A DNA stretch of 64,000 bases from an uncultured Candidatus Saccharibacteria bacterium (lineage in GTDB: Bacteria > Patescibacteriota > Minisyncoccia > Phycocordibacterales > JACOZG01), in NCBI GenBank assembly GCA_964651115.1, contig CAZYXJ010000002.1, positions 48,338 through 112,337 on the forward strand. The letters run 5' to 3'. The position numbers and the translations under genes were made by a program. Each line of letters opens with the position of its first letter. Within the stretch, counting starts at the first letter, position 1. Shown piece after piece: positions 47,883-51,710 of the stretch. A model generated the notes under the pieces. That model was not told the DNA's origin. It searched no databases and saw only the letters and a list, made by a program, of their open reading frames with translations.

Positions 47883-47968
47883 GCGTCGGTGGTAGAGTGG
47901 TCAATTACAACAGACTGTAAATCTGTCGCCCTTTGGGCTACGTAGGTTCGAATCCTACCCGGCGCACC
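47883..47968 (+). tRNA. tRNA-Tyr (anticodon GTA), long variable arm
   Basis: It folds with acceptor GCGTCGG/CCGGCGC, anticodon loop CTGTAAA on stem ACAGA/TCTGT and T-arm GTAGGTTCGAATCCTAC. CC is encoded. Confidence 0.7.
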
Positions 47969-48060
47969 GCTTGATTGACTTTTCGTGTTTGGGGTGGTAA
48001 TATTGTTCGCAGATTGACTGCCACGGTGGCAGTTAAAAACTAGATAAAGGAGGGAGAGCA

Positions 48061-48477
48061 ATGGAGAAGGGAGAACTTAAGGCCAGGCTCGAGAGAGCTC
48101 TTCGTCGCACGGAGAAAGTGCCCCGGCAGCTCGTGGTCATGTTTCCGGATCATCCTCAACTTAACGAAATGATGAGGGTGTTGTCTGGCGACGAGCAGAA
48201 GGAATTTCTGCAGCTCTTTGTGAGAGCTTGGCGGCTGGGGGCGAGGGAGGTATTTGTGGAAATCTTGCCCTGGCTCAATAGCCACAAGTTCAAGTGGAGC
48301 ATGGTAGAGGCTTCCGGTAACGAGCTCCACTTCCATTCCTGCGCTGACGACGGCTTGGTCGTCTGTGAGTGTTCACTAAGTTCGTCGAGTTCTTTGGCGG
48401 GGCTCGACGCTCGGGTTCCTCTTAGGAAGACCCTTTTCTGGGTGGCGGGTCGCTCCCAAGACCTACCCATTTTCTAG
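48061..48477 (+). CDS. Hypothetical protein (138 aa), foreign-looking codon usage
   Basis: It has a strong RBS (AAAGGAGGGAGAGCAATGG). Codon usage is rich in CTC/AGG/AGA, unlike the core genes. No family was recognised. Confidence 0.4.
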   Translation: MEKGELKARLERALRRTEKVPRQLVVMFPDHPQLNEMMRVLSGDEQKEFLQLFVRAWRLGAREVFVEILPWLNSHKFKWSMVEASGNELHFHSCADDGLVVCECSLSSSSSLAGLDARVPLRKTLFWVAGRSQDLPIF

Positions 48478-48568
48478 TTTAGGTTCTGGGTCGCAACCTC
48501 GTTGGTACCTGTTTTTAAGCCAGGGCCGCGGGGTTGCTTTTTTATCCGGATGTGCTATTCTGGCCGGC

Positions 48569-48727
48569 ATGTCGCAAGACCAACTCATCAAGCTCGCCTG
48601 CCAGAAGTGCAAGCGAATCAATTACTGGAGCCGCAAGAACCGCAAGACGGTGGAGCGGAAGATTGAGCTTAAAAAGTATTGCCGCTGGTGCAAGGCTCAT
48701 AAACCCCATAAAGAGATTAAAAAATAA
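48569..48727 (+). CDS. rpmG: 50S ribosomal protein L33 (52 aa, below the ORF-track size cutoff)
   Basis: The translation MSQDQLIKLACQKCKRINYWSRKNRKTVERKIELKKYCRWCKAHKPHKEIKK has the two CxxC zinc-ribbon pairs and the NY..KN...+ELKKYC motif of bL33. Confidence 0.7.
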   Translation: MSQDQLIKLACQKCKRINYWSRKNRKTVERKIELKKYCRWCKAHKPHKEIKK

Positions 48728-48733
48728 TTTCAG

Positions 48734-48764
48734 AAAAAGTCCCCGCTCGGGGACTTTTGTTTTA
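48734..48764 (+). terminator. Rho-independent terminator after rpmG
   Basis: The hairpin AAAAAGTCCCCGctcGGGGACTTTT is followed by GTTTT. Confidence 0.6.
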
Positions 48765-48794
48765 GCGCAAAATCGGCTACTATGGGGCCAATCA

Positions 48795-48868
48795 GGGCCT
48801 GTAGTTTCAATGGTAAAACATCGGTCTCCAAAACCGAGGTTCTCGGTTCGAATCCGAGCGGGCCCGCC
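48795..48868 (+). tRNA. tRNA-Trp (anticodon CCA)
   Basis: It folds with acceptor GGGCCTG/CGGGCCC, anticodon loop CTCCAAA on stem TCGGT/ACCGA and T-arm CTCGGTTCGAATCCGAG. Confidence 0.8.
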
Positions 48869-49031
48869 CCAAATATCTGTTATTGGCAGATCTGAGTGCC
48901 TTGGGGCACTTGTTTGTTGAAAACGATCAGATGGCATCTACTCAACATGTAAATACTGAGCAGATGTCATGCCCATGTTGGTAGCATCTCCTTGCAAAAA
49001 AGTACACCGCGGCTTATACTCATTTATACCT

Positions 49032-49667
49032 ATGCTTGATCACCTGAACGAGAACGACAAGAAGGCCTACGCCCTAATCCGCAACCGTCTCGTGCACGGC
49101 ATGGAGGCCCCCACCCTCAGGGAGATAAATGAGGTGACCGGGAAAGCTTCGCCGCGGTCGGCCGTGCTGGCGCTTGAGCGCCTTGAGCGCGCCGGGCTTA
49201 TCCGCCGCGCCGGAAGAAAGATCCGCCTGACCAGACCGAGCCTCGCATCGAACGCCTCGGTATCGACCGTGAATGTTCCGCTCGTCGGCAGCATCGCGGC
49301 TGGCGCACCGATCCTCGCAGAGGAGAACGTCGAGGCGGTGATTCCGGTTTCGACCGCGCTCGCTCGGCCGGGATCGAAGTACTTCCTGCTCCGCGTTTCC
49401 GGAACGTCGATGAACGAAGCAAAGATTGATGGTTCGAAGATAGAGGGCGGCAGCATCGTGCTCGTGCGCCAGCAGAATTCCGCTGACGACGGACAGGTGG
49501 TTGTCGCGCTCATCAACGACGAAGCAACGGTGAAGATACTCGAACGCAAGAACGGCGTCGTCATCCTCCGCCCGAAGTCGTCTGACCAGCATTCGCCGAT
49601 CGTATTAACAGATAACTGCGCTATTCAGGGCGTGGTGGTGGGAGTCCTGCCGCCCGGCCTGCTCTAA
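49032..49667 (+). CDS. lexA: LexA-like S24-family transcriptional repressor (island-borne)
   Basis: An N-terminal wHTH is followed by an S24 peptidase domain with GSIAAGAP (cleavage-site region), VSGTSM (catalytic Ser) and KIL (catalytic Lys). The start was moved to the ATG at 49032. The ORF-track start is 48969. Confidence 0.7.
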   Translation: MLDHLNENDKKAYALIRNRLVHGMEAPTLREINEVTGKASPRSAVLALERLERAGLIRRAGRKIRLTRPSLASNASVSTVNVPLVGSIAAGAPILAEENVEAVIPVSTALARPGSKYFLLRVSGTSMNEAKIDGSKIEGGSIVLVRQQNSADDGQVVVALINDEATVKILERKNGVVILRPKSSDQHSPIVLTDNCAIQGVVVGVLPPGLL

Positions 49668-49671
49668 ACAT

Positions 49672-49899
49672 ATGGCAAAGAACATCCACACCGTATTCAA
49701 CTCCGACAAGCACCGCTGGGAGAACAAGTCCGAGGGAAGCGCGAAGCCCCTCTCGTGGCACCGCACCAAGGATAACGCGGAAGACCGCGCCCAGGACATC
49801 GCGGAGAACAAGAAGGTCGAGCATTTTATCCATGGTAAAGACGGAAAGATCCAGGAGCGCAACAGCTACGGGAACGATCCATTCCCGCCTCGCGGCTAA
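49672..49899 (+). CDS. DUF2188 domain protein
   Basis: The W.HRTKDNAEDRAQDIAENKKVEHFIHGKDGKIQE pattern is typical of DUF2188. It sits 5 nt after lexA. Confidence 0.5.
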   Translation: MAKNIHTVFNSDKHRWENKSEGSAKPLSWHRTKDNAEDRAQDIAENKKVEHFIHGKDGKIQERNSYGNDPFPPRG

Positions 49900-49904
49900 C
49901 ACCC

Positions 49905-50327
49905 ATGGAATCGAAATTGAAACACCTTGAATTCATTCAGGACGCCATCAAACGGATGGCGGGCAACTCATTCCTGCTCAGGGGGTGGAGTATCACCTTG
50001 GTGATTGCGATCTTCACTCTTGCCAGCCAGACCTACCGGCCGATCTACGTTTGGATCGCCCTTTTTATAACGGTGGTGTTCTGGCTTCTCGACTCGTACT
50101 ACCTCCGTCAGGAACGCCGCTTCCGCTGCCTCTACGAGATAGTCCGGGTGAAAGACCCTGGGAGCATCGACTTCTCGATGTCGCTCCCGAAGAAACACTG
50201 CAGCAACTGCAGCTGGTTCTCGGCAGCCAGATCCCCCATCTTTACCGTGTTCTACGGATTAATAACCATGATCTTGATCGCGATCCTGCTCGGGATCTAC
50301 CTCAATATCTCAATAACCCTAAAATAA
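49905..50327 (+). CDS. Small 2-3 TM membrane protein (hypothetical)
   Basis: A 140 aa ORF has hydrophobic helices GWSITLVIAIFTLA, IYVWIALFITVVFWLL and FTVFYGLITMILIAILLGIYL. It is tightly packed in the cassette. Confidence 0.45.
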   Translation: MESKLKHLEFIQDAIKRMAGNSFLLRGWSITLVIAIFTLASQTYRPIYVWIALFITVVFWLLDSYYLRQERRFRCLYEIVRVKDPGSIDFSMSLPKKHCSNCSWFSAARSPIFTVFYGLITMILIAILLGIYLNISITLK

Positions 50328-50330
50328 TTT

Positions 50331-50975
50331 ATGGCCCGAAAAATATTCTTCAGTTTCCATTATGAGCGCGATGCTTGGCGAGCCGGCCAGGTTCGCAACA
50401 GCGACTTGCTCCCTAACGAGGATGAACGCGGATTCATCGACGCAGCGGCATGGGAGGAAATAAAGCGCAAAGGCGATGCGGCGATTCAGAACTGGATCAA
50501 CGAGCAGCTTGAAGGCACCTCGGTCACAGTCGTTCTAATTGGAGCAGAAACCTCGCAACGCCCGTGGGTTGATTACGAAATCCGCACCAGCTGGGAGCGA
50601 GGCAATGCCATCATCGGCCTCTACATCCACGGCGTGAAAGATCAGGAGAGCAAGACTGACACGAAGGGCGCAAATCCTCTCGACGGCATCTATCTCGCTG
50701 ACGGGCAGCCACTCTCAAGCGCATGCAAGACTTATGACTGGGTTCTCAACGACGGGCGCAACAATCTCGGCGGCTGGGCAGATCTCGCTGCAAAGGAACG
50801 CGCAGAGTACAAGGGCGAAACTAAGCTCAAGGTCGGAGCGGTAAAGGGCTTGGTGCCGCCTCCAACCCGCCCGACAACTCCGGGACTTATTAATCCGACC
50901 ATGCCACGAACCGCGCCCAACACAGGCTTCGTGCCTCATTCTCCGCATTCGGACTATGCTGACGGAGAGCGATAA
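50331..50975 (+). CDS. TIR-like domain protein (ThsB-like / DUF1863-type)
   Basis: The N-terminus MARKIFFSFHYERDAWRAGQVRN, then GTSVTVVLIGAETSQRPWVDYEIRTSWERGNAIIGLYIHG, matches my recollection of the conserved blocks of the MTH538/ThsB TIR-like family. A Pro-rich C-terminal tail follows. Confidence 0.6.
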   Translation: MARKIFFSFHYERDAWRAGQVRNSDLLPNEDERGFIDAAAWEEIKRKGDAAIQNWINEQLEGTSVTVVLIGAETSQRPWVDYEIRTSWERGNAIIGLYIHGVKDQESKTDTKGANPLDGIYLADGQPLSSACKTYDWVLNDGRNNLGGWADLAAKERAEYKGETKLKVGAVKGLVPPPTRPTTPGLINPTMPRTAPNTGFVPHSPHSDYADGER

Positions 50976-51660
50976 GCAGTGGCTGGCGGAAAACTATCCG
51001 AATCTTTCGGTCGAATCAGATAACCGGGTTTTTGGCGAGGTGCCGTTCGTTGCGACCTACAACGCTGAGACTGGACGGTTTTTGCAGATTACTCCTGACG
51101 TCGTAGACGGCGTGGGAGGATTGCGACTGTCCGGAACATTTTGTATCGCCATAGCAGAGCGAACTACGACGCCTAACTCGCGCCTGCCGGCGCTCACCGT
51201 CGAAGGAGTTGATACGCTGCCGGATCGCCACTTCAACCAGTCTGACCTCAGCGCCTGCATGTGCAATCCTCTCGAGGAAGACGAATATCTAGAGCCTGCG
51301 TTCGATTTTCAGAGATACTTCAAGGAGTTGGTGATCCCGTTTCTTTACGGCCAGCTGTGCTATTCACAAGAGACGCGATGGCCTTGGTTCGACTACGCAC
51401 ATGGTGGCGTAGGGACAATTGAGGCGTTCTCCAAAAATCCCACACCAGCCAAAGCGGAGGAATGTATCGGAATCATCTCGCGCGAAATCCGTCTGTGGCC
51501 GCTAGTTAAACGGTTGCTGCTACAGACGGGTGACATAAAGGGACACGCTCCATGCCTGTGTCCGAAGCGCGATCATTTACGGCGATGCCATCCTGTAGCG
51601 CTTACAGGTTTGAGGCTTCTAAGGGACGCGGTGAAAACGCACAAGATCCAGCTCCCGTAA
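50956..51660 (+). CDS. Hypothetical Cys-rich protein, translationally coupled to the TIR-like gene (candidate effector/sensor partner)
   Basis: A 234 aa ORF overlaps the TIR gene by 20 nt. Its Cys/His clusters (CMCNP, CYSQ, HAPCLCPKRDHLRRCHP) suggest metal binding. No family was recognised. Confidence 0.4.
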   Translation: MLTESDKQWLAENYPNLSVESDNRVFGEVPFVATYNAETGRFLQITPDVVDGVGGLRLSGTFCIAIAERTTTPNSRLPALTVEGVDTLPDRHFNQSDLSACMCNPLEEDEYLEPAFDFQRYFKELVIPFLYGQLCYSQETRWPWFDYAHGGVGTIEAFSKNPTPAKAEECIGIISREIRLWPLVKRLLLQTGDIKGHAPCLCPKRDHLRRCHPVALTGLRLLRDAVKTHKIQLP

Positions 51661-51710
51661 AAGTGACACATGAATGTCCCGTTTCAGTGTCACTTTTGTA
51701 ACTTTTCAAA
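51661..51710 (+). terminator. Rho-independent terminator ending the cassette
   Basis: The 10-bp stem AAAGTGACAC...GTGTCACTTT is followed by TGTAACTTTTCAAAAAA. Confidence 0.55.

Follow-up and report, generated by a model that had tools for sequence, protein, structure and literature searches.

The closest described relatives of the locus presented here belong to E2-only immune systems and to Thoeris. In the short type II form of the antiphage signalling system that is based on cyclic oligonucleotides (E2-CBASS; CBASS), the E2 protein of the Serratia marcescens CdnG-E2 system (PDB 8HSB/9KKB) processes the C-terminus of the cyclase CdnG, forming a thioester at Cys101 and an isopeptide bond at Lys159, and poly-cGASylation activates the cyclase (PMC12948482; bioRxiv 10.1101/2022.05.25.493364). 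Among the substrates published for E2-CBASS and Cap2, the single feature that never varies is a conserved C-terminal glycine. For Thoeris, a December 2025 preprint (Yirmiya et al., bioRxiv 10.64898/2025.12.03.692087) enumerates 29 types of putative effector, which include several small membrane proteins as well as DUF2188, validates types V-XI, and reports operons with Cap2 and Cap3 in which the TIR tail contains glycine. Here we describe a five-gene cassette (49032-51660, plus strand; genes g1 to g5) in a 64,000-nucleotide (nt) stretch of DNA from an uncultured Candidatus Saccharibacteria bacterium (GenBank assembly GCA_964651115.1, contig CAZYXJ010000002.1); this whole stretch is referred to as the window. 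In the cassette, a ThsB-type TIR gene is followed by the gene of a stand-alone E2, and the two are preceded by a LexA-type repressor, a DUF2188 protein and a small membrane protein.

A Thoeris-type TIR with a stand-alone E2

The g4 protein consists of a TIR domain (approximately residues 1-158) and a proline-rich C-terminal tail (approximately residues 160-214). A preliminary description of this DNA, made from its letters alone, had recognized g4 as a ThsB-type TIR, and the HMM (hidden Markov model) searches agree: besides PF08937 (Table 1), the protein matches the PADLOC models ThsB1 (1.3e-64) and PDC-M50B (4e-60, over 1-158 of 162 positions). These two models are 162-164 positions long and cover g4 residues 1-158 only. 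Matches in the PDB include 8wcf_A (1e-32) and BcThsB (6lhy, 2.8e-30), which like PF08937 are confined to residues 1-158, and the catalytic-type glutamate of g4 lies within PWVDYEI, of which WVDYEI aligns with WVRYEI of BcThsB. No SIR2, SLOG or Macro domain was detected on the five cassette proteins (domain search, E<=1). The cassette therefore differs, as had been noted, from type I and type II Thoeris in possessing neither a SIR2-SLOG ThsA nor a Macro-TM (transmembrane) effector, whereas its relative L001 carries SIR2_2 and STALD domains (related loci are denoted by L numbers and individual proteins by P numbers). The accompanying premise that these are the only known Thoeris partners is out of date, given the 29 putative effector types of the December 2025 preprint.

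The g5 protein, previously set aside as belonging to no recognizable family, is an E2 with the UBC fold and of the E2-only CBASS kind. It matches seven PADLOC models named 'E2' or 'E1-E2' (best 1.5e-18), and it has no match in Pfam, NCBIfam or PHROG. The AlphaFold2 (AF2) model is of high confidence (predicted local distance difference test, pLDDT, 93.5; predicted template modelling score, pTM, 0.85) and shows a helix, four to five strands, a long loop and further helices in this order. We detected 131 homologues of about 230 amino acids (aa); a scan of the viral contigs of IMG/VR found no member of the family. In 36 members of the family, R91 and H92 (within RHFNQ, which resembles the HPN motif of E2 proteins) and C101 are invariant; a C200-x-C202...C211-H212 motif at the C-terminus is likewise invariant and K195 is nearly so. 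The C-terminal motif reads CPCGSG..K.CH in some members and is probably a SEC-C-like zinc knuckle. A search of the PDB with the family's sequence profile gave no match at E<=1, thus no detected similarity to the Serratia E2 (SmE2), and we therefore consider the g5 family a distinct E2 subfamily.

The likeness to E2-CBASS is nevertheless one of organization as well as of fold. Both have a stand-alone UBC-fold E2 with a conserved cysteine and neither E1 nor JAB (no E1 or JAB gene was present in any locus examined), both place the E2 gene directly 3' of a signal-producing enzyme bearing a C-terminal extension, and members of g5's own family serve CD-NTases (cGAS/DncV-like nucleotidyltransferases) in L005, L009, L022 and L038. 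The differences are that the window's E2 has a TIR as its client rather than a CD-NTase, that g5 has 234 aa and a SEC-C-like zinc motif whereas SmE2 has 159 aa, and that the g4 tail is a disordered proline-rich linker with a short tag whereas the published tails are a helix or beta-sheet ending in the conserved glycine. Because it has no CD-NTase, the system appears to work like E2-CBASS without itself being a CBASS. The Thoeris operons with Cap2 and Cap3 similarly combine a ThsB TIR carrying a C-terminal tail, an effector and CBASS-derived ubiquitin-like conjugation machinery; in contrast to the window, which has an E2 only and a different tag, they encode Cap2, which is an E1-E2 fusion, and Cap3, a JAB peptidase. 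E2-only Thoeris is not mentioned by Yirmiya et al., and no description of it was found in the literature that we searched, where only Cap2 and Cap3 are reported with Thoeris.

The third gene encodes a 140-aa protein that had been described as having 2-3 TM segments; it, too, is recognizable. It matches the PADLOC model PDC-M50A over positions 1-128 of 134, and its AF2 model (pLDDT 84) shows three long helices (residues 2-43, 46-82 and 111-139). It further matches phrog_19896 (9e-37) and no Pfam family. A profile search over 1.84 billion representatives indicates a very large family of proteins of about 135 aa, with 5,627 representatives of clusters at 50% identity at E<=1e-3 and 4,100 at E<=1e-10. 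Members of this family adjoin ThsB TIRs in Patescibacteria, Acidobacteriota, Bacillota and metagenomes. The adjacent genes g3 and g4 match the PDC-M50A and PDC-M50B models end to end. PADLOC PDC models stem from genes that were found inside other defence systems (bioRxiv 10.1101/2024.01.29.577857), and the text of that paper by Payne et al. neither discusses PDC-M50 nor gives functional data on it. PDC-M50 differs from the window in being a two-gene candidate whose TIRs have about 160 aa and no tail. Pairs of this kind, with a g3-type protein and a tail-less ThsB TIR but no E2, were found in Thalassobacillus (L019) and in metagenomes (L020 and L021). The arrangement as a whole had been called undescribed. 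This holds, apparently, for the E2-only accessory on a Thoeris-type TIR and for the C-terminal tag described below; the g3/g4 pair was already a PADLOC candidate and E2-only control is known from CBASS.

Small membrane effectors also occur in type V Thoeris (ThsF/DUF2270) and in the '3TM' class, and a three-helix membrane effector adjoining a ThsB TIR is known for ThsF. Two observations are compatible with a kinship between g3 and ThsF: in Table S1 of Yirmiya et al., DUF2270 is the partner of TIRs that have the FFSFHYERD motif, and the three helices described for ThsF agree with the g3 model. The link of g3 to the Pfam family is weak, however. Scans of 30 and then of 10 g3 homologues against Pfam gave only weak matches to DUF3278 and DUF2270, one displayed match to PF10028 covers a transmembrane stretch only (E 0.069), g3 itself has no such match, and no bridge between the g3 family and DUF2270 appeared among the 150 proteins listed from the profile search. 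Two fusion proteins contain the g3-type module. P0397 (378 aa) joins a SLOG domain (LD_cluster2) to a C-terminal three-helix membrane domain of the g3 type, which is the expected architecture of a ligand-gated effector, and P0410 joins an 8xMP membrane domain to a g3-type module. Judging from both fusions, g3 appears to be an effector module that can be reused.

Distribution of E2-linked loci

We classified 28 species-representative E2 loci from Patescibacteria, Acidobacteriota and Bacteroidota using custom-built HMMs and Pfam. The most frequent order was TM-TIR-E2 (11 loci, one of them as TIR-E2-TM: L023, L024, L026, L030, L037, L041-L045 and L047), followed by an effector, either SAVED or patatin, with a CD-NTase and the E2 (eight loci: L022, L025, L033, L034, L038, L039, L046 and L049) and by TIR-E2-TIR (six loci: L028, L029, L031, L032, L035 and L036). 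A single locus (L027) presented a membrane protein, an enzyme resembling metallo-beta-lactamases (MBL) and the E2, and two loci were truncated (L040 and L048). A TIR is the client of the E2 in 17 of the 26 informative species-level loci. The E2 gene always lies directly 3' of the gene of the signal-producing enzyme and mostly overlaps it; the 20-nt overlap of TIR and E2 in the window is seen again in distantly related loci, among them L001, L012 and L017. Members of this E2 family also stand 3' of CD-NTases whose effector is of the SAVED or patatin type (L005, L009, L022, L033, L038 and L046). The five-gene order of the window was found again in L012-L016, L023, L024 and L030.

This gene-neighbourhood comparison supports the earlier view of the cassette as a defence-type unit whose genes are co-conserved, the core being present in 11 of the 28 loci. 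A housekeeping operon was considered and rejected: the neighbours vary by locus, and recombinases, terminase-like genes and other defence genes lie alongside.

Loci with the order TIR-E2-TIR, such as L001, represent type I Thoeris, since the arrangement runs on into a SIR2-STALD ThsA. In L001 (5400-8918) two ThsB genes and the SIR2-STALD ThsA are present, and the E2 follows the first, tail-bearing ThsB only. In metagenomes of peat and soil, this locus was seen on at least 24 contigs. The protein carries the label 'Halobacteriota archaeon' in one source, but the identical locus is found in Terriglobia metagenome-assembled genomes (L031 and L032). In L027 (3489-6702) the client is a 345-aa MBL-like protein with an HPHKDH motif and the tail …PFSPKSPWCSL; its match to Pfam Lactamase_B (0.0015) is below the cutoff, and S24, DUF2188 and a membrane protein of 197 aa come before it. 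This protein may represent a third class of immune enzymes under E2 control.

A C-terminal tag shared by E2 clients

We surveyed 27 non-redundant proteins encoded just 5' of the E2 (18 TIRs, eight CD-NTase-type proteins and the MBL-like protein). The motif F-x-P-x-x-P-[W/H] was found in 26 of them, two to nine residues from the C-terminus, and the remaining protein reads LTPRAPW at this place. Controls without E2 do not present the tag, namely the 160-aa TIR of L020, the second TIR of L001 and the CD-NTase of L058. Two loci that were found through LexA and not through the E2 (L056 and L057) present the variant tags FTPTRQW and NNPSKPW, each together with an E2. The tail of the window's TIR, PNTGFVPHSPHSDYADGER, is almost identical to that of the CD-NTase of L022, PNTGFVPHSPHSDYANGER, and the E2 of L022 is 75% identical to g5. 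The near identity of these tails suggests that tail and E2 have moved together between enzyme classes. From this distribution, F-x-P-x-x-P-[W/H] appears to be the recognition motif of the E2, and we propose it as such.

LexA, DUF2188 and the mobile-element backbone

The g1 protein matches PF00717 (Peptidase_S24, 1e-26) and PF01726 (LexA_DNA_bind, 3e-6) and scores 145.8 bits on TIGR00498, above the cutoff of 110.95. It also matches phrog_4 (transcriptional repressor) and CI-like repressor families. The residues needed for autocleavage are present (the Ala-Gly site in IAAGAP, the serine in GTSM and the lysine in ATVK). We set its start at 49032, which homologues and the promoter-like site favour over a longer open reading frame (ORF) from 48969. 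The g2 protein, besides its DUF2188 match, corresponds to the PADLOC single-gene candidate PDC-S16 (3.8e-27) and to phrog_3220 (1e-22).

More than 700 close homologues of g1 were detected, and three orthologous loci with 73-81% identity to g1 were inspected. Behind LexA, L056 has DUF2188-SAVED-CD-NTase-E2, L057 has SAVED-CD-NTase-E2 with a serine recombinase further downstream, and L058, a complete Moraniibacteriota genome, has DUF2188-CD-NTase-Cap15 and no E2. The same LexA backbone carries the window's five-gene order in L012 and L015. DUF2188 directly follows LexA in L012, L015, L027, L030, L056 and L058 irrespective of the cargo. Because g1 orthologues precede differing cargo, LexA with or without DUF2188 can be regarded as a mobile-element backbone of Patescibacteria with a cargo slot after the repressor, and the loci look like a family of mobile or prophage-like elements with a defence hotspot. 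A scan of metagenomes with LexA returned six short contigs only and was uninformative.

The g1 orthologues also adjoin a divergent block (L056:411-4941, L057:122-4941, L058:1-4966, L012:1-4074 and L015:1-4009), which comprises a terminase-like gene of 480-500 aa, a small ORF, one or two DNA methyltransferases of the N6/N4 type, of which one is a fusion with ParB_N, and a second small ORF. This block was either lost from the window copy or never present in it: tblastn searches with proteins from the related loci revealed no terminase, methyltransferase or recombinase gene in the window.

In 11 of the 28 species-level loci the cassette has an S24 gene next to it, either co-directional or divergent. 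In Acidobacteriota and Bacteroidota, the S24 genes next to E2 cassettes are not orthologous to g1 (L017, L037, L038, L042 and L044) and some are divergent; in L017, only a shared intergenic region of 50 bp separates the S24 gene from the cassette. Together with the conserved promoter and TATAC-N5-TATAC site described below, this suggests that regulatory coupling between S24 genes and the cassette is common and not obligatory. The position of a LexA/S24 repressor at the head of the unit, which had been emphasized before, is thus a recurrent feature, but LexA and DUF2188 are not specific to TIR cassettes, as they also precede CBASS cargo (L056-L058) and as cores without S24 exist. A fixed pair of S24 and DUF2188 in all variants was considered and dropped: the 69-aa gene after the S24 gene of L009 is not DUF2188. 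The L009 S24 gene is itself not orthologous to g1.

Repressor genes head CBASS or Thoeris-type operons in the CapW, CapH+CapP and CapK+CapS systems as well, where a response to DNA damage is expected. The window differs from these in having a single self-cleaving LexA/S24 protein and no WYL protein, M78 partner or kinase; M78 pairs are present in the relatives L001 and L005. LexA-type heads are not mentioned in the papers on CapW, CapH/CapP and CapK/CapS that we retrieved.

Layout, regulatory signals and genomic context

The five genes form one co-directional series closed by a single strong terminator, as initially reported. The spacing had been given as gaps of 5, 5 and 3 nt and an overlap of 20 nt; the first gap is in fact 4 nt, a trivial difference, and the other values are correct. 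The only promoter-like (sigma-70-like) site ahead of g1-g5 is kept in L015, L056, L057 and L058, 5' of the orthologous LexA genes, and in each of the five aligned loci only 11 nt separate the end of its -10 box from the ATG of LexA. With the -10 box this close to the start codon, the operon probably has a leaderless or almost leaderless mRNA. A candidate operator overlaps the -10 box. In the relatives it reads GTATAC-N4-TTATAC, an imperfect GTATA-N6-TATAC palindrome, and its columns are invariant in the five loci; we infer that the g1 repressor binds there. The terminator hairpin (-18.5 kcal/mol, z = -4.75; none of 200 shuffled sequences folds equally well) is followed by the U-rich tract UUUUGUAACUUUUC. 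A simple terminator scan missed this hairpin because its loop is long.

Table 1. Positions of the cassette, its signals and neighbouring features in the window.
Feature	Position	Strand	Basis or remark
Promoter-like site, -35 TTGCAA, 17-nt spacer, -10 TATACT	48992-48997 (-35); 49015-49020 (-10)	+	9/12 matches
Candidate operator TTATAC-N4-TTATAC (TATAC-N5-TATAC)	49014-49029	+	Overlaps -10
g1, LexA-type repressor, 211 aa	49032-49667	+	Winged-helix DNA-binding domain and S24 autopeptidase
g2, DUF2188 protein, 75 aa	49672-49899	+	PF09954 3.9e-17
g3, membrane protein, 140 aa, putative effector	49905-50327	+	PADLOC PDC-M50A 2.5e-45
g4, ThsB-type TIR, 214 aa	50331-50975	+	PF08937 5.4e-26
Tail tag FVPHSPH (g4 residues 200-206)	50928-50948	+	8 residues from C-terminus
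g5, E2 (UBC fold), 234 aa	50956-51660	+	PADLOC models; AF2 model and fold search
g5 Cys101 codon	51256-51258		Invariant in 36 family members
g5 C200-x-C202...C211-H212	51553-51591		Probable zinc knuckle
Intrinsic terminator	51658-51707 (hairpin 51658-51698)	+	Folding energy and U-rich tract
tRNA-Trp	48795-48868	+	Left edge of 3-kb island; boundary marker, outside the system
rpmG (L33)	48569-48727		5' of island
Long ORF	48534-48920	+	Overlaps tRNA and rpmG; almost certainly spurious
Long ORF	48542-48937	-	Overlaps tRNA and rpmG; almost certainly spurious
ORF, 191 aa	51875-52450	-	3' of cassette
ORF, 177 aa	52588-53121	-	3' of cassette

Across 48.8-51.8 kb the GC content is 0.55-0.61 and the GC skew is about 0, the flanks showing a skew of +0.1 to +0.2. 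Because of these shifts, the whole unit, LexA included, looks acquired. The region 5' of this island (47883-48868) contains tRNA-Tyr, a 138-aa ORF of unknown function, rpmG and tRNA-Trp. We also considered the segment 51789-51812 as a repeat of the 3' end of tRNA-Trp, and hence as a putative attachment site or integration scar; it scored no better than background and was rejected. On the 3' side, where the GC content is 0.45-0.49, the 191-aa and 177-aa ORFs are weakly related paralogues (25% identity, E 7e-8), and neither has a match in Pfam, NCBIfam or PHROG.

Proposed function and alternative explanations

We consider it probable that the cassette is Thoeris-like abortive-infection cargo on a Patescibacteria mobile element, equipped with a control layer of the E2-only CBASS type and with LexA-type transcriptional control. 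Under this scheme, g4 would sense infection and, as its family membership suggests, convert NAD+ (nicotinamide adenine dinucleotide) into a small signal derived from ADP-ribose (ADPR). The signal would activate g3, which would oligomerize and damage the membrane. The comparative data suggest that g5, presumably coupled in translation to g4 by the 20-nt overlap, binds the F-x-P-x-x-P-[W/H] tail. By analogy with the Serratia E2 and CdnG, it may process, covalently hold, conjugate or multimerize the TIR through Cys101, and its action on g4 would set the threshold of TIR activation. The g1 repressor is predicted to autoregulate the five-gene transcript from the single conserved promoter overlapping TATAC-N5-TATAC, and its self-cleavage, stimulated by RecA once DNA is damaged or phage replicates, would increase expression. 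The g2 protein is part of the LexA backbone. As a more general and still tentative proposal, the E2 and the F-x-P-x-x-P-[W/H] tail could be a portable module that can be recombined onto any signal-producing immune enzyme, be it a TIR, a member of several CD-NTase clades or even the MBL-fold enzyme of L027; its chemistry would be independent of glycine, unlike ubiquitin-like conjugation through a C-terminal Gly, and the main clients of this E2 subfamily would be Thoeris-type TIRs and not CBASS enzymes.

Several observations weigh against this scheme, and they can be explained in other ways. The TM-TIR-E2 core lacks any S24 gene in L026, L041, L043, L045 and L047 and the same LexA backbone carries unrelated cargo in L056-L058, so that LexA control must be optional. 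The link to LexA could mean no more than that the cassette and a prophage-type repressor are transcribed together during lysogeny, and g1, which lies above the LexA equivalog cutoff, could even be the only LexA of the cell. It is thus possible, with a probability that we consider modest, that LexA and DUF2188 are no functional parts of the defence system but simply the immunity repressor and a backbone gene of a prophage-like or integrative element, and that TM-TIR-E2 is a 'moron' in its cargo slot, expressed constitutively rather than induced by the SOS response, co-transcribed with the repressor in the carrier state like lambda cI-rexAB. The terminase-like and methyltransferase block beside the g1 orthologues with their differing cargo, the serine recombinase of L057, the matches of g1 to phage-type repressor families and the foreign composition of the island, LexA included, all fit this explanation, as do the five loci without S24. 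Yet the window copy, without terminase, methyltransferase or recombinase, still keeps LexA, DUF2188 and the cargo as a tight operon, the non-orthologous S24 genes beside cassettes in Acidobacteriota and Bacteroidota, in both orientations, point to a regulatory link beyond one family of elements, and the E2 family was not found in IMG/VR viral contigs. Constitutive cargo and LexA-type control are also compatible with each other, since an autorepressed LexA promoter would yield basal expression plus SOS induction.

The scheme of E2 control and TIR signalling also meets difficulties in the tail and in g3. The tail has no invariant glycine, the residue ahead of the F of the tag being G, S, P or A, and the chemistry may therefore differ from that of published systems or there may be no conjugation at all. 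In the latter case, which we think rather unlikely, the E2 would act as a tail-binding stoichiometric inhibitor, chaperone or C-terminal protease, and its client, a TIR or a CD-NTase, would stay inactive until a phage factor displaces or destroys the E2. The absence of E1 and JAB genes from all loci agrees with such a role, as does the additional C-terminal zinc-knuckle region of about 70 aa, which is missing from the 159-aa SmE2; the published Serratia E2 is itself a cysteine protease that forms a 1:1 covalent complex. The strictly conserved HxN...Cys active-site signature, however, would not be needed for simple binding, and the nearly invariant K195 could be an acceptor lysine like K159 of SmE2. 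As for g3, it has no demonstrable ligand-binding domain, and its likeness to DUF2270/ThsF (PF10028) is weak, with 6 of 30 homologues matching at a best E of 0.0047. The TIR might then itself be an effector that depletes NAD+, as NADase effectors are frequent among bacterial TIRs, with g3 as its sensor or anchor and no diffusible signal. We regard this as improbable. g4 belongs to the signal-producing ThsB family (E 3e-30 to BcThsB, and ThsB1), the TIR occupies the CD-NTase slot and g3 the slot of SAVED or patatin effectors in loci of this E2 family, the E2-linked TIR of L001 stands within a canonical type I Thoeris with SIR2-STALD ThsA, and a g3-type domain is fused to SLOG in P0397.

Implications

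Among bacterial immune enzymes, ubiquitin-like control has been elucidated for cGAS-like cyclases and barely noted for TIRs associated with Cap2 and Cap3. The loci described here attach a minimal E2-only controller to Thoeris-type TIRs in at least three phyla. The tag common to TIR and CD-NTase clients is short and easily mutated, which offers an experimental handle on how E2-only systems choose and regulate their clients; together with Cys101, it also gives a handle on whether conjugation primes TIR signalling. Finally, the LexA-headed cargo slot on Patescibacteria elements can be mined for more defence systems in a phylum that is almost untested in this respect.

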